From an uncultured bacterium (GTDB lineage Bacteria; Verrucomicrobiota; Lentisphaeria; Victivallales; UBA1829), in assembly GCA_902762495.1 (NCBI GenBank), contig CACWOL010000006.1, positions 3,771-67,770 on the forward strand: a stretch of DNA of 64,000 nt, written 5' to 3'. Below the pieces are notes generated by a model. That model searched no databases, was not told the DNA's origin, and worked only from the letters and a program-made list of their open reading frames with translations. Each line of letters starts with the position of its first letter. Position 1 is the first letter of the stretch. Shown piece by piece: positions 22,566 to 30,565 of this stretch. The position numbers and the translations under genes were made by a program.

Positions 22566-22577
22566 TTACATCATGCC
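22566..22577 (+). repeat. att direct repeat TTACATCATGCC (left junction)
   Basis: Identical to 30554-30565, the last codons of groEL (GGC ATG ATG TAA). Confidence 0.85.
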
Positions 22578-22699
22578 TGTAAATTTTTATGCTCAAAAGC
22601 AAGAAAATTTTCTGTTTTGTGCTTGTAATTTGCCTTTTTGATGCTATTTTATACCAAACACGGGCAAATAAACACAAACAAGCAAAGGATCGGTAAAAA

Positions 22700-24115
22700 A
22701 TGGCACGAACGACACGCGGACGGCTGTATAAACGAGGGAAGAAGGGAAACTATTATCTCCAGTATTACCAAAACGGCATAGAGCACCGCGAAGCCTTGCG
22801 AGACGAACACGGCGAACCGATAACCGGGGCCGATGCCGCAAGGGCCGCCGCAGATCGCATTCTTGCCCCGCTACGCTTTAAGGATGACGCGCAGAAGCTC
22901 CGAACGCTTGTAAGTGAGCTTTCCTCTTTGGAAAAGAAAGCGGAAGATGCCACCGCCGCACTGAAAAACCAGGCCGCGACACTTGAAAACGGCTGGGAAT
23001 GCTTTTTGAAATGTCCGACTTGCCCGGACACTTACACGCGATACGGGCAGAGCGAACCGCCGCACGACAGCCGCGCTTATATATCCAGGGGGTACTATCG
23101 GAATTTTGTTTCCTGGACGCAGAAGCATCACCCGGAAATCATACTTTTAAGCGAAGTATCCGAAGGTATAGCGCAAGAGTACATTAACACGCTGAAAGAA
23201 AAGTATGGATCAAACGGGCGGCCAGTTAATGAAAGATTGCGAATACTGAAACAGATGTATTTTTCCATGCTGGAAGATGAAAAAATAGTTATGCCGCGCG
23301 ACCCGTTCAAAAGGATAAGAAGGCTAAAAACATTTACAACCACGAAAGACGCGCTCACGATAGAGGAAGTCCAGCGGCTTGTAAGCGCCGCCAAAGATGC
23401 TGAAATGCGGAGACTTGTTTTAATCGGTTTTTGTACGGGCTTGCGGCTGGGGGATTGCTGTACGCTCCAATGGGGAGAAGTGGATCTGATAAGACGTGTT
23501 ATTTCACGGATTCCGAATAAAATGTGCGACCGGGTACAGAACCCGGAGAATGTACGAGTAAAAGTAGGGATTCCCGCCCTTTTGATGAACGAGCTTTTAG
23601 CAATTCCAGCAGAACAGCGAACCGGGCCAGTATTGCCGCATTTATGCGAACAGTACAACGAACGCCACACGGGGCTTTATAAGCAGATCAGAGCGCTTTT
23701 CAAAAGCGCAAAGATTGTTACAATCAAGCCAGGGAGTAAAGACGCGCAACATCCGCACGGGATTATCATAAAGGGCTTTCATTCGCTCCGGCATACATTC
23801 GTTAGCCTAAGCGCCGAAGCCGGGGCCCCACAACACGTTATACAGCGGATTGTCGGGCATAGTTCGCCCTTGATGACGATGCATTACACGCACCTGGGAA
23901 ACGCCGATCTATTGCGAAGCGCCGACAGCCTGCCAGCCTTGCCCCTGGAGACCGCGCCAGGAAAGGAGACCGCCGGGGCCGCCGCCGTGATCGATGTTTC
24001 GCCCCTGGAGACCGACGATCAGACGGAACGCGATCGGGCAGAACTCCGGGCGCTTGCCGACACCCTGCCGCCGGATCAGATCCGGGAAATACTGAACCAT
24101 TACCGGGGAGCTTGA
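22700..24115 (+). CDS. int: Tyrosine recombinase/integrase
   Basis: TGLRLGDC (R), FHSLRH (HxxR), VGH, MTMHY (Y); N-terminal arm-binding-like beta motif. Confidence 0.93.
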   Translation: MARTTRGRLYKRGKKGNYYLQYYQNGIEHREALRDEHGEPITGADAARAAADRILAPLRFKDDAQKLRTLVSELSSLEKKAEDATAALKNQAATLENGWECFLKCPTCPDTYTRYGQSEPPHDSRAYISRGYYRNFVSWTQKHHPEIILLSEVSEGIAQEYINTLKEKYGSNGRPVNERLRILKQMYFSMLEDEKIVMPRDPFKRIRRLKTFTTTKDALTIEEVQRLVSAAKDAEMRRLVLIGFCTGLRLGDCCTLQWGEVDLIRRVISRIPNKMCDRVQNPENVRVKVGIPALLMNELLAIPAEQRTGPVLPHLCEQYNERHTGLYKQIRALFKSAKIVTIKPGSKDAQHPHGIIIKGFHSLRHTFVSLSAEAGAPQHVIQRIVGHSSPLMTMHYTHLGNADLLRSADSLPALPLETAPGKETAGAAAVIDVSPLETDDQTERDRAELRALADTLPPDQIREILNHYRGA

Positions 24116-24118
24116 AGC

Positions 24119-24961
24119 ATGACAGATAAACAGAAAAAAATAGTCGATGATTATATATCGAACGTGAAAAGCCGTTATTCGGATATTTTTGATTTTGTGT
24201 TATTCCTTCCTTGCTCTACCCCTTCTTTTTGGGGGAAAGAGCTTATAGATCGGCTATCAGATTCAGACCGGGAAAAGTTGGATAGTTTTCTATCAGAAGC
24301 GCGCCCCATTCGCGAGGACATTAGCTTTTGTCAAGAAAAAATACAAGCGCGGATGAATTGTTGTATAGACCATGTAGAAAGAATTGCAGCCGGAACAGAA
24401 GCGCCAAGAGACGCTATGCAGCTTTACTTGACATTCTACGGCCTTTTTGATGAAAGCATACGTTTTTCCGCGCTTGCGATGCAGTCTATAATGCTTTCCG
24501 AAAGGATCGCGCGCCTGCTGGAGAAGTATAGCGACGAAGAAACGAACACCGCCGCACGTCAGCACCTGGACGAGGTAAAAAAGATACTTGACGTGATCCA
24601 CGAGGAACACGCCGCCACGCGGGAAATGATAGGAGATCAGCACCGCCACGCCTGGGAACGCTGGGCCACTGTTCCCGAATGTGTACGCGCTATTGTGGAT
24701 ATGGCAAAGACCGAAAAAGCCGACGGGAAAAATATTTCTCTACCAGGGAATGAAAACACGTTACGGATTAAAATTTCAAACTGGTTAAATGAGCACGGAA
24801 AGCGCCGGGAAGGAACGCAGAAAAAACCGTATTTTCAGACCGCAGATATAGCAGATGCCGCAGGAGTTTTTTATAAAGAATTTGAGCCCGTTCAATATCT
24901 CCGGGAGTTTGAAAAAATCGGCATTCCCGCCGAACGCATACAGAAACCAAAAAAGAAATAA
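24119..24961 (+). CDS. Hypothetical protein of the element, possibly with a C-terminal DNA-binding domain
   Basis: 280-aa ORF 3 nt after int; low GC; no recognisable family. Confidence 0.6.
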   Translation: MTDKQKKIVDDYISNVKSRYSDIFDFVLFLPCSTPSFWGKELIDRLSDSDREKLDSFLSEARPIREDISFCQEKIQARMNCCIDHVERIAAGTEAPRDAMQLYLTFYGLFDESIRFSALAMQSIMLSERIARLLEKYSDEETNTAARQHLDEVKKILDVIHEEHAATREMIGDQHRHAWERWATVPECVRAIVDMAKTEKADGKNISLPGNENTLRIKISNWLNEHGKRREGTQKKPYFQTADIADAAGVFYKEFEPVQYLREFEKIGIPAERIQKPKKK

Positions 24962-24973
24962 ACTCGAAAAGGG

Positions 24974-25079
24974 TTTTAGAGGAGTTTTAGAGGAATTATA
25001 AAAAATTGTGCTGTTTTTTTGAGCTGGAGACGCACCACCACGCGCACCGTCTCCGGCTTTTTTTAGAGGATTTTAGAGG
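24974..25079 (+). promoter_or_regulatory. Four TTTTAGAGG boxes in two tandem pairs flanking a GGAGACG/CGTCTCC hairpin; likely operator array
   Basis: Copies at 24974, 24985, 25061 and 25071, upstream of the HTH/primase operon. Confidence 0.55.
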
Positions 25080-25130
25080 GGGAATAGTACATTTTCGGCA
25101 GTTCCAACACGCAACAAAAAACGCAAGGAG

Positions 25131-25469
25131 ATGCCAAAAATGGAAATCAGAACCAAGATCACGCCGCAAGTGATCGCCGCCGCCACTGGATTACTGCAAC
25201 CCTTCATCCCCGATCTTTCCCCGCAGGGGCTTGTTTCAGCCTTGAAGGAGTACAACGCCAGCAAGCCGAAGCCGGAGCCGGATAATCGGCCCATGACCCG
25301 CCAAGAGGCCGCCGAGCTGCTGAAGTGCTCCAGAAACACGATCAGCCACTATCTTTCAATCGGCAAGCTCCGCAAGATCACGCTTACAGCAAGATCATGC
25401 CGGATCGATCCCGCGAGTGTTCGCGCCCTGCTTTCCGGGGAGACCGCCAGCGCCAGCCAGGAAGGATAA
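25131..25469 (+). CDS. Helix-turn-helix (excisionase/AlpA-like) DNA-binding protein
   Basis: MTRQEAAELLKCSRNTISHYLSIGKL..RID matches the MerR-type HTH_17 pattern. Confidence 0.78.
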   Translation: MPKMEIRTKITPQVIAAATGLLQPFIPDLSPQGLVSALKEYNASKPKPEPDNRPMTRQEAAELLKCSRNTISHYLSIGKLRKITLTARSCRIDPASVRALLSGETASASQEG

Positions 25470-25476
25470 GCCGAGA

Positions 25477-29586: not shown

Positions 29587-29612
29587 TCTTCTGCAAACAT
29601 GAGGAAACCAGC

Positions 29613-29786
29613 ATGAATAACGACAGCCCGGCCCCTTTAATCCTCGGATCGATTACCGCCTTTATCCTTGCCATCTATTGCGGTTTTTGGTATGCCGCAA
29701 TCGTGCCGGGGCTTATTCTTTTCGGTTTTATCGTTCTGTATCTTCAAGACCGGGCAGAAAAGCAGGATAAAAAAGGCAAGAAATAG
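29613..29786 (+). CDS. 57-aa two-TM membrane protein (below the ORF-track length cutoff)
   Basis: MNNDSPAPLILGSITAFILAIYCGFWYAAIVPGLILFGFIVLYLQDRAEKQDKKGKK; GAGG RBS; own promoter. Confidence 0.65.
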   Translation: MNNDSPAPLILGSITAFILAIYCGFWYAAIVPGLILFGFIVLYLQDRAEKQDKKGKK

Positions 29787-29929
29787 CCCGAACGCGACCC
29801 GCCGCCGATGTTCCCGGCCTGGACGGACGCCGAACGGATGCCGCCGCCCGAAGCGAAGAAAAGAAAAAACGAGGCGGGAAGAAAGAAAATCAGCATAAAT
29901 AATTCATTTATAGCGAGTTATAAAACATA

Positions 29930-29957
29930 ACGTCGCATAATAGGCATTATGTTAAAT
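29930..29957 (+). other. dif-like XerC/XerD recombination site
   Basis: ACGTCGCATAA-TAGGCA-TTATGTTAAAT: XerD arm 11/11 and XerC arm 7/11 identical to E. coli dif, 6-bp spacer. Confidence 0.75.
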
Positions 29958-30102
29958 CGTTTGAGGTTAAATTGTAGCATTTTTTATGTGTAGCGCCACA
30001 TAACAAGCATAGAAATATAACACGAAAACGACTTGAAAAAACGGAAAACGGAGTTATATTATCATAGACCCGAAACCACCAACCCCGAAAGGATCCCGAT
30101 TC

Positions 30103-30363
30103 ATGGAAAGCCCTTATCCGACCCGAAAAGAAGAGGCTGAAGTATTCAAAGAGGCCGTAGAGCGCCTAAAGATCAAAGGCATAGACGCGCCGCGCTGGTT
30201 TGGAGTTGCCCGGCAGACCCTTGCCAGCTGGACGAGTGGACGCACGACGATCCCGCGAGAAGCTTTTATAATCCTGCTGGAAACGGATAATATCAACTAC
30301 CGCCGGACGCAAGAAAGATTCGATCAGATAGCCGCGACTGTTGAACGGCTGAAGAAACAATAA
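30103..30363 (+). CDS. Small XRE/Cro-like HTH protein
   Basis: APRWFGVARQTLASWTSGRTTIP HTH pattern; promoter TTGAAA-16nt-TATATT at 30033-30060; RBS AAAGGA. Confidence 0.65.
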   Translation: MESPYPTRKEEAEVFKEAVERLKIKGIDAPRWFGVARQTLASWTSGRTTIPREAFIILLETDNINYRRTQERFDQIAATVERLKKQ

Positions 30364-30406
30364 CCGCGACCGCGCCAGGGAACTGGATACCAAGTCCCAA
30401 AAAGGG

Positions 30407-30448
30407 AGCCGCCCCCGTTATGAAGATCACACGGGAGCGGCTTTTTTT
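30407..30448 (+). terminator. Intrinsic terminator at the right end of the element
   Basis: AGCCGC-CCCCGT/ACGGGA-GCGGCT stem plus T7. Confidence 0.6.
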
Positions 30449-30553
30449 CTTCTGTTCTGTATTGTGCGTATTATCTTCAGTACAAACAAGAAATAATACG
30501 CACAAGAAAAACAAGAAATAAGCTCAAAAGATAGGGCTTGAATAGGGCGCGTG

Positions 30554-30565
30554 TTACATCATGCC
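30554..30565 (+). repeat. att direct repeat TTACATCATGCC (right junction, within the groEL 3' end)
   Basis: Identical to 22566-22577. Confidence 0.85.

Follow-up and report, generated by a model that had tools for sequence, protein, structure and literature searches.

The window analysed here, a 64,000-nt stretch of contig CACWOL010000006.1 from a Victivallaceae bacterium (Lentisphaerota) of the cattle rumen, contains at positions 22566–30565 an intact 8.0-kb integrative mobile island inserted at the 3' end of groEL. It is virtually certain that this island is a site-specific integrative, self-replicating mobile element, and it belongs to a previously undescribed family of integrase-regulator-primase islands of Lentisphaerota. 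On the question of how it moves between cells, we lean towards the view that it is a minimalist phage satellite. An uncharacterised satellite family had been proposed in the original prediction, which was made from the sequence of the window. The discrete and uncharacterised Lentisphaerota family with its layout of integrase, AlpA-like helix-turn-helix (HTH) protein, primase-helicase and origin is confirmed, whereas the satellite nature was not shown, the element having three of the five components of a phage-inducible chromosomal island (PICI).

Insertion of the element at the groEL stop codon

The element is bounded by a 12-bp core, TTACATCATGCC on the forward strand (GGCATGATGTAA on the reverse strand), which has exactly two copies in the 64 kb, at 22566–22577 and 30554–30565, versus none expected by chance from shuffled sequence. 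The left copy (attL) marks the junction at which the flank of relatives diverges, exactly at its left edge. The right copy (attR), identified by the 12-mer search together with translation, corresponds to the Gly-Met-Met codons and the stop codon that end groEL (30554–32197, reverse strand), an intact gene for a 547-aa protein that lies outside the element, with groES and dnaK beyond it. The proposed 12-bp attachment sites at both junctions with groEL left intact are thus borne out, and the homology of relatives starts exactly at the core, in line with the further claim that the element is confined by these repeats. All genes of the element are on the forward strand, and its G+C content is 47–55% versus 60–65% in the chromosome around it.

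Empty sites, with the order terminator, core and groEL, were found in four rumen metagenome contigs (L093–L096; loci are designated by L numbers throughout). No metagenome contig matched the left flank, core and groEL joined exactly as expected for the window strain without the element; these four came from a looser pattern anchored on the terminator. Their groEL products are 96–100% identical to that of the window at the amino acid level, and the genes end in ...TTACATCATGCC, with a homologue of the terminator ~45–50 nt further. One of these contigs, L095, is syntenic with positions 10003–18534 of the window at 90.7% nucleotide identity and lacks both the element and the neighbouring Cas9 locus. 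In addition, the empty joint from 22453/22458 to 30554 is present in Logan contigs of two runs (X8 and X22) at a depth of 120–139, compared with a depth of ~5 for the element there. Empty groEL sites in related strains, which had been named in advance as a check, therefore exist. Conversely, an identical integrase was found in contigs that hold the same element at groEL next to a different left flank, with AAA_14/DUF4143 and type VI secretion system genes and no Cas9, so that an integrase of 100% identity occurs with two different left flanks. In these contigs, similarity to the window flank falls at the left edge of the core: 49 of the first 50 nt of the element match, versus ~80% of the 40 nt beside the core, and the next ~110 nt of host flank are homologous yet far more diverged. 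The element is an insertion.

A tyrosine integrase recombined the 12-bp core that constitutes the last three codons and the stop codon of groEL; the gene was rebuilt and supplied with a new terminator, and its native terminator was displaced by 8 kb. The latter is the hairpin with a U-run at 22405–22452 (reverse strand, outside the element), since its homologue lies ~45–50 nt from the groEL stop codon in the empty sites. Within the element, a hairpin flanked by an A-run and a U-run (30401–30448; z = -2.9 and -4.1 on the two strands) has the features of a bidirectional terminator that can be predicted to stop transcription of orf86 on the forward strand and, since the insertion, of groEL on the reverse strand. 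The inverted repeat at 30462–30505 was also considered as a groEL terminator and rejected, as it has no U-run on either strand and the hairpin at 30401–30448 fits the role. Between the native terminator and attL there is a ~65-nt stretch (22467–22530) that is a short dispersed repeat, with three copies in both orientations in L095 and none in the shorter empty sites.

Related elements in Lentisphaerota

The nearest genomes are metagenome-assembled genomes (MAGs) of rumen Victivallaceae. Five relatives with integrases 78–99% identical to that of the window (L007, L008, L087, L088 and L091) possess the same 12–14-bp repeat ~134 bp upstream of int and 6.6–8.1 kb downstream. The second repeat was confirmed at the groEL stop codon in L007 and L008, where groEL is 77–99% identical to that of the window; the contigs of L087, L088 and L091 end ~30–110 nt from the second repeat. 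L009 (integrase 70% identical) has the core at its left end, and its contig stops short of the right end. Host groEL genes of this groEL-targeting clade are 77–100% identical. L101, with an integrase 72% identical and with AlpA 96% and orf204 82–88% identical to those of the window, is not at groEL and is flanked by CTTGTTTTGTACA at ~375 and ~8160; target specificity has thus switched within the clade.

Relatives with 33–40% integrase identity are spread across Lentisphaeria, and several of these distant relatives keep the order of int, a contiguous gene of 240–306 aa, an AlpA-like HTH gene, a primase/helicase gene and small open reading frames (ORFs). Six of the distant relatives (L012, L014, L016, L021, L025 and L031) are inserted into genes for tRNA-Leu or tRNA-Tyr; their repeats measure 20–181 bp and their spans 6.7–8.7 kb, and element sizes in the family are 6.6–8.7 kb. 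In each of the delimited elements (that of the window, L007, L008 and the six at tRNA sites), the target lies at the end far from int and is encoded on the other strand. The cultured Oligosphaera ethanolica DSM 24202 (NZ_JAUSVL010000001.1) has a 7.3-kb element in tRNA-Leu(tag) (L031), as well as a second locus, L027, that holds a copy of the RNA motif described below. No target was identified for L027 or for L018 from a Victivallis vadensis MAG.

The elements are mosaics of modules. In L002, the integrase is 100% identical to that of the window, but orf280 is 50%, the primase 68%, orf97 41% and orf204 78% identical. In L098–L100 (integrase 69% identical), the distal genes are replaced by that of an 850-aa HsdM_N/N6_Mtase/Eco57I-type protein with HTH_26 and DUF3990 (~8.0–11.4 kb in L098), and L104 (integrase 46% identical) has a HigB/HigA pair in its distal part (6198–6827); both replacements look like defence or addiction cargo. 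A further locus, L003, with a groEL 82% identical, was not accepted as evidence for a second host species. Identity between L002 and L003 is 100% in the left flank, the element and ~300 nt of groEL and falls to 60–88% thereafter (from L003 position ~10900 onward), which is probably due to a metagenome assembly chimera or a recombination point inside groEL.

Replication module and candidate regulatory switch

The int gene (22700–24115, forward strand) encodes a 471-aa tyrosine recombinase (PF00589, 4e-16; phrog_1, 4e-38), and the catalytic R..HxxR..Y columns are invariant among its 635 homologues. The primase-helicase gene (25477–27639, forward strand) encodes a RepA-like protein with PriCT_2, Toprim and AAA_25 domains (Pfam; phrog_2597, 4e-82), the C-terminal part of which matches the RSF1010 RepA helicase 1g8y. 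The origin (27637–27760) is located directly 3' of this gene, with repeats and a palindrome spanning 27640–27749, specifically, iterons ACTGGTTTTTTA (27640 and 27661) and GGTTTTTTA (27673 and 27710) followed by the palindrome GAAAACCCCATAGGGGTTTC (27730–27749). Relatives with other primase types possess the same architecture with other iterons, namely GGTAGTTTTTTA in L002 and GATTGGGGA in L088; the iterons of L101 and L008 differ again, and every set is followed by its own AT-centred palindrome. The covariation of iterons with primase type is good evidence for a replication origin. The ori-like repeats of the original prediction are thus real, and the integrase, HTH protein, primase-helicase and small ORFs that it listed are all in the sequence. 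Between PriCT_2 and Toprim, the primase-helicase has a proline-run low-complexity linker PPPPPPIPGAIPPPPPPPS (25757–25838), encoded by GC-rich 9-nt tandem repeats.

The gene contiguous with int, orf280 (24119–24961, forward strand), begins 3 nt past the int stop codon and encodes a 280-aa protein without a family match in Pfam, PHROGs, NCBIfam or PADLOC; its family comprises just 12 clusters among 5.8 billion proteins. The AlphaFold model (AF2; pLDDT 81) has long N-terminal helices and a compact alpha/beta C-domain. A Foldseek comparison of this model with PDB and BFVD returned nothing below E = 0.1, and a sequence search of PDB returned noise only. Among relatives, the protein consists of a variable helical N-domain and a conserved C-domain (~residues 170–280) that recombine independently, and the C-domain is common to the int-adjacent genes of L008 and L012. 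Downstream of orf280, the region upstream of alpA (24974–25080, forward strand) contains four copies of TTTTAGAGG(A/G), at 24974, 24985, 25061 and 25071, that flank the terminator hairpin of int-orf280 (25021–25059). The same switch architecture with other repeat sequences was found in L002/L087 and in L009. L007 has the same TTTTAGAGG repeats as the window and an orf280 C-domain 96% identical, whereas L002 and L087 have TTTTGGGA repeats and a C-domain just 55% identical to that of the window. Repeat type tracks the orf280 C-domain only, because Int, AlpA, primase and orf86 of L087 are 94–100% identical to those of the window despite the other repeats. We propose that the orf280 product is specific to its element, where it would bind DNA as a regulator or serve as a cofactor of excision, and that its variable domain is a sensor. 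The following gene, alpA (25140–25469, forward strand), encodes an AlpA-like HTH_17/excisionase-family protein (PF12728, 1.5e-6; phrog_66, 'excisionase and transcriptional regulator'; TIGR01764), and an AlpA-like HTH is encoded in nearly all relatives.

Conserved motifs were identified at both ends of the element. The sequence GCTCAAAAG occurs just twice in the window, near the left end (22591–22599) and near the right end (30522–30530) of the element, both times on the forward strand, and may be a site for the recombinase or an accessory factor. In relatives with integrases 70–100% identical, GCTCAAAA is conserved 14 and 23 nt inside the two cores. A 13-nt motif, TTGTGC[GT]T[AG]T[AT]AT, is likewise conserved in these relatives, with one copy at the left end and an inverted pair at the right end. 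The inverted pair, TTGTGCGTATTAT (30462–30474) and ATAATACGCACAA (30493–30505), is conserved in L007, L088 and L008, and the third copy, TTGTGCTTGTAAT (22617–22629, forward strand), is over the likely int promoter in a region where CTGTTTTGTGCTTGTAATT forms an invariant block in seven relatives. All three are candidate arm-type Int sites. The sequences that had been put forward as probable arm sites are therefore present near both ends and conserved, and their role as arm-type recombinase sites is credible.

Structured leader RNA and distal genes

A leader RNA of ~200 nt (28578–28775, forward strand) is located between orf97 and orf204 and exceeds the neighbouring proteins in conservation, which holds even for relatives with only 46–82% integrase identity. 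The RNAalifold consensus structure has 45 pairs, 25 of them with compensatory changes, and 93% of alignment cells are paired, whereas sliding the partners lowers this to 37–46%. With a covariance model built on the 3' domain (28676–28770), 19 instances were recovered, all on the int strand, with 96% of cells paired and compensatory changes in 25 of 29 pairs; frequent G-U pairs also fit the forward strand. Besides the window, the motif was found at L008, L014, L016 (two copies), L018, L021, L024, L027, L088, L100, L101 and L104. Seven of the 19 instances did not contribute to the model; they coincide with or adjoin distant relatives, among them the loci of Oligosphaera ethanolica DSM 24202 and Victivallis vadensis, and four of the seven are within delimited tRNA-site elements (L014, L016 and L021). 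The motif is so far specific to small integrative elements of this family in Lentisphaerota: Rfam 15 gave no matches at E ≤ 0.1 over window positions 18000–33000, the RNA sequence pattern had no hits in IMG/VR, and the RNA model had none over 80 IMG/VR integrase loci.

The 3' domain forms a three-way junction within a terminator stem followed by a U-run, with conserved single-stranded GUGAAG, CAAGG and CCGACCGC, and in the outermost helix the GGAAAG ribosome-binding site (RBS) of orf204 is paired with a U-run further upstream. The predicted fold suggests either a leader that acts both by transcription termination and by masking of translation, or a stable small RNA, ahead of the orphan distal operon. 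A strong sigma-70-like promoter of the leader and the operon, TTGAAA-17-TATATT (28545–28573, forward strand), is kept in L088 and has the form TTGACA-17-TATATT in L100. Further upstream, two copies of GCCGCCGGATGCCGCC (28431–28469, forward strand; a third copy at 29452–29467) are conserved in L002, L007 and L087 and constitute putative binding sites.

None of the four small ORFs has a match in Pfam, PHROGs, NCBIfam or PADLOC. The small Cys-rich orf97 (28048–28290, forward strand; called as 80 aa, or 97 aa if it starts at a GTG further upstream) has weakly similar homologues in the corresponding place of L101, L104 and L002. The orphan orf204 (28780–29394, forward strand), with an Ala/Pro-rich disordered N-terminus and a helical C-terminus, belongs to a family of nine clusters; an exhaustive hidden Markov model search found seven representatives among 1.84 billion, none of them annotated, and its profile had no match in IMG/VR. 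Its AF2 model (pLDDT 45) is too poor for use. The possibility that orf204 is a cryptic small terminase (TerS) was rejected, as hhalign gave a probability of 0.2% against the TerS of L012. The product of orf57 (29613–29786, forward strand), 98–100% identical in L002, L007 and L087, has a long hydrophobic stretch and is probably membrane-spanning. Finally, orf86 (30103–30363, forward strand) has its own promoter (30033–30062) and a homologue in L014. It is a candidate small Cro/CI-like regulator in which an HTH was read by eye; no Pfam family was found, and a PDB sequence search gave noise only.

Contigs of a rumen metatranscriptome (run X22) cover 28466–28753, orf204, orf57 and orf86 through attR, and none cover orf280, alpA or the primase gene. 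This pattern fits an integrated state in which the right-hand module alone is expressed. One of the contigs (29930–30592) may include groEL read-through antisense to orf86.

Neighbouring Cas9 locus

On the left, the element abuts a CRISPR locus, in agreement with the Cas9 array reported beside it earlier. An ORF for a 1026-aa Cas9 (18791–21871) is directly followed by an array of 36-nt repeats and five 30-nt spacers (~21963–22321) that adjoins the left junction. No cas1 or cas2 was called between Cas9 and the upstream neighbours Lon, CTP_transf_like and Pribosyltran, and the five spacers gave only self matches against all fetched loci. The content of this place downstream of groEL seems to vary and to be rich in defence genes. 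In L095 (9709–12781), the Cas9 locus is replaced by three other genes, of which one encodes an HSDR_N restriction-nuclease-like domain, and in L002 an AAA_14/DUF4143 gene is found there.

Phage satellite or another kind of island

No capsid, portal, tail, large terminase (TerL), lysis, relaxase or type IV secretion system (T4SS) families were found in the element by Pfam, PHROGs, NCBIfam and PADLOC scans, which upholds the earlier observation that structural and conjugation genes are absent; for relaxases, T4SS and coupling proteins the result rests on Pfam and NCBIfam family scans, which do not reach oriT. Likewise, none of the 81 ORFs of ten relatives has a capsid, portal, tail, large-terminase or relaxase Pfam family at E ≤ 1e-4, and there is no such family among the best 25 of the 58 PHROGs of the same relatives. 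One relative from a Victivallales MAG, L012 (7.9 kb, in tRNA-Leu(taa) with a 181-bp repeat), encodes a lone Sf6-type TerS (PF20901, 3e-39) at 7218–7664, as well as an ERCC4 nuclease at 6122–6706. The closest homologue of this TerS, 55% identical, is encoded on a 42-kb IMG/VR contig directly upstream of TerL-like, DUF4055 and Mu-F-like genes, and the DUF4055 protein is presumably a portal. L012 is tied to the window element by its integrase (38% identity), AlpA (49%) and orf280 C-domain (9e-40). A lone TerS without TerL is a PICI signature. The satellite reading is strengthened by this TerS, by a layout that matches the phage-inducible chromosomal minimalist islands (PICMI) and by the lack of structural genes in relatives. 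The N6-methylase restriction-modification-type and HigBA cargo of relatives also counts in its favour.

In terms of the SatelliteFinder components of PICIs, the element has an integrase, a regulator and a primase-replicase with an adjacent origin, the 'forbidden' tail, holin, portal and TerL genes are absent, and neither TerS nor a capsid-morphogenesis or packaging-interference gene was recognised. Several observations speak against a satellite. No ORF of the element matches TerS, and it has no capsid-remodelling gene and no recognisable cos or pac site; the orphan ORFs could hide an analogue of capsid-morphogenesis or packaging-interference genes. With three of five core components, it is a 'Type C' PICI, an ambiguous class described by the SatelliteFinder authors as possibly functional satellites and possibly other mobile elements (PMC10085698). 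A helper phage was not identified, and the window has no evident prophage. The DNA of the element has no match among INPHARED phages and PLSDB plasmids (blastn, distant mode), and the primase has no close relatives in IMG/VR. An excised circle, which had been suggested as a check, was not seen: the expected attP junction, ...GGGCGCGTG-TTACATCATGCC-TGTAAATTT..., was absent from IMG/VR in a pattern search and from the joints listed for contigs of seven Logan runs, although assembled contigs lose rare junctions. In the source sample, the depth of the element (9.6) is close to that of the flanks (7–11), and neither a virome-labelled run nor a virion-derived read was found. The link between orf280 and the switch repeats could stem from physical linkage alone, as the repeats adjoin the gene, and the metatranscriptome contigs are without strand information and are a poor measure of depth.

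Some of these observations would also suit a non-satellite integrative replicative island, tycheposon-like or resembling an integrated small plasmid-like replicon, that performs its own excision and replication and does not specifically exploit a helper phage; vesicles, natural transformation or incidental generalised transduction would carry it between cells. The functions that can be recognised in the element are confined to integration, regulation and replication, with no packaging or interference gene and no phage-related sequence. Moreover, the SatelliteFinder authors warn that sets of int, alpA and primase may be other mobile elements (PMC10085698), and concatemers like those of virion-encapsidated integrative mobile elements (VEIMEs) have been seen in vesicle fractions too (PMC9618062). 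We nevertheless consider such an island rather unlikely, if a serious contender, given that L012, of the same family, encodes a phage-type TerS but no TerL, that PICMI behave as true satellites with this minimal gene set, and that partition or plasmid-maintenance genes are lacking and every copy of the element seen is integrated.

A defence or addiction island is a less probable explanation still, in which the int-primase backbone would be a vehicle and the selected function would be anti-phage protection by the RNA-controlled orf204-orf57 module beside Cas9. It draws on the restriction-modification and HigBA cargo at the equivalent position in relatives, on the detection of the distal module in RNA, on differences between strains in what follows groEL (Cas9, an HSDR_N nuclease-like gene or an AAA_14/DUF4143 gene) and on the resemblance of orf57 to a small membrane protein. 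However, orf204, orf57 and orf97 have no PADLOC match, and a defence function is compatible with a satellite, since satellites commonly carry defences, and leaves transfer unexplained. As for the possibility that a prophage decayed and left this remnant at what was once a phage attachment site, the phage-type integrase and the primase with PHROG matches would fit, but all ORFs are intact, both cores are perfect (12/12), no structural-gene fragment is present, and the compact 6.6–8.7-kb design, with modular recombination, recurs across many genomes and targets, with near-identical copies in several samples and flanks; such a remnant is highly improbable.

If the element is a phage satellite, its cycle may be envisaged as follows. 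In the integrated state, the replication module would be silent, and the leader RNA, orf204, orf57 and orf86 would be transcribed. A helper phage would lift control at the repeat-flanked switch upstream of alpA, where the C-domain of orf280 probably binds the repeats and the variable N-domain may sense the phage. AlpA and Int would then excise the element, and the primase-helicase would fire the origin at 27637–27760. Copies could be packaged in helper capsids either as concatemers, in the manner of PICMI, or via a cis site, as the member in the window is without TerS, while the relative L012 would redirect packaging by its own TerS. In a new host, Int would insert the element at the near-universal GGMM-stop end of groEL. 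We tentatively suggest, as a possibility that falls short of being probable, that this is a new Lentisphaerota satellite family with two new control devices: a modular, Stl-like orf280 with an N-domain that senses helper-phage proteins and a C-domain that binds element-specific direct repeats at the alpA switch, and a structured leader RNA that gates the orphan distal operon through a terminator and RBS masking, possibly in response to a phage-encoded factor.

To our knowledge, phage satellites are known almost only from Proteobacteria and Firmicutes, and the literature searched contained no paper linking them to Lentisphaerota. A satellite-like family in this phylum, if true, would add bacteria of the gut and rumen from the Planctomycetes-Verrucomicrobia-Chlamydiae (PVC) superphylum to the known hosts. 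The novelty lies in the host phylum, in the module-swap evidence for the origin and the switch, and in the RNA motif. Natural swaps that pair iterons with primase type and switch repeats with orf280 type provide one testable handle, and the strongly covarying RNA motif absent from Rfam provides a second. The presence of relatives in the cultured O. ethanolica DSM 24202, a possible model, and in Victivallis vadensis MAGs makes bench work possible.

Comparison with known satellites

The closest counterparts in gene order are PICMI of Vibrionaceae, which likewise consist of int, a gene that overlaps or adjoins it, alpA, a primase gene and a few unknown ORFs (PMC10803314). These are proven minimalist satellites that have neither TerS nor a capsid-remodelling gene and are packaged as concatemers; the PICMI model accepts HTH_17 as AlpA (PF05930 or PF12728), and the int-contiguous gene is needed for excision (PMC10803314). 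The window element has the integrase and AlpA (PF12728) of this model, and its int-contiguous gene corresponds by position (240–306 aa across the family). Thus, orf280 can be likened to the PICMI gene iolg/icg by position, with no sequence kinship to iolg as far as can be told, and to Stl of the Staphylococcus aureus pathogenicity islands (SaPIs) by an analogy of logic. Both kinds of elements are located at the 3' end of a conserved housekeeping gene, fis in PICMI versus groEL here, and the sizes are ~6 kb versus 8 kb. The primase differs, with DUF3987/DUF5906 in PICMI and PriCT_2, Toprim and AAA_25 in the window, although DUF5906 and D5_N are found in some distant relatives of the window element. 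The hosts are Vibrionaceae versus Lentisphaerota, the window element has an extra RNA-controlled distal module, and helper induction and concatemer packaging are features of PICMI.

With the Gram-negative int-alpA-pri PICIs and the staphylococcal PICIs, the element shares the integrase, regulator, primase-replicase and 3' iteron origin, as well as the lack of tail and lysis genes, and it differs in having no TerS, Ppi, Cpm, capsid-morphogenesis gene or Stl homologue. More than 99.9% of the 1436 putative PICIs detected by SatelliteFinder are in Proteobacteria or Firmicutes (PMC10085698). The staphylococcal precedent for the groEL 3' end was cited correctly in the original prediction: PICIs of this genus integrate there, and att includes the final 18 bp of the gene (PMC8125051). 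As in these groEL-site PICIs (SeCISE48 and the SaPI2 type), the attachment site of the window element overlaps the last groEL codons and the gene is left intact, with 12 bp instead of 18 bp. Judging from the phylogenetic distance, the use of groEL by the two groups is probably convergent, and their independent use of the groEL stop region suggests that the conserved sequence coding for the GGM tail is a favoured landing pad.

P4-like satellites share with the element an integrase, an AlpA-type regulator, one large primase-helicase and a size of ~8–11 kb. Immunity in P4 involves a small leader-derived RNA that causes termination, a possible analogy to the leader RNA of the window element. Homologues of Psu, Sid, Delta and epsilon were not detected in the element by PHROG and Pfam searches, no cos site was identified, and its helicase is RepA/DnaB-like versus D5-like in P4. 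The capsid, portal, head-tail connector and TerL of capsid-forming PICIs (cfPICIs) are absent. Marine VEIMEs and tycheposons are also small elements with an integrase, a primase-helicase, AlpA and sometimes TerS, and without capsid genes (PMC9618062). VEIMEs occur in under-studied phyla including Verrucomicrobia and target tRNA genes or gene 3' ends (PMC9618062). They are defined by recovery from virions as concatemers, whereas the rumen element is known from sequence and can be likened to them by description. Taken together, the window element is not a member of the PICMI, the Type A or B PICIs, the P4-like satellites or the cfPICIs, and its layout is closest to those of PICMI and 'Type C' PICIs.

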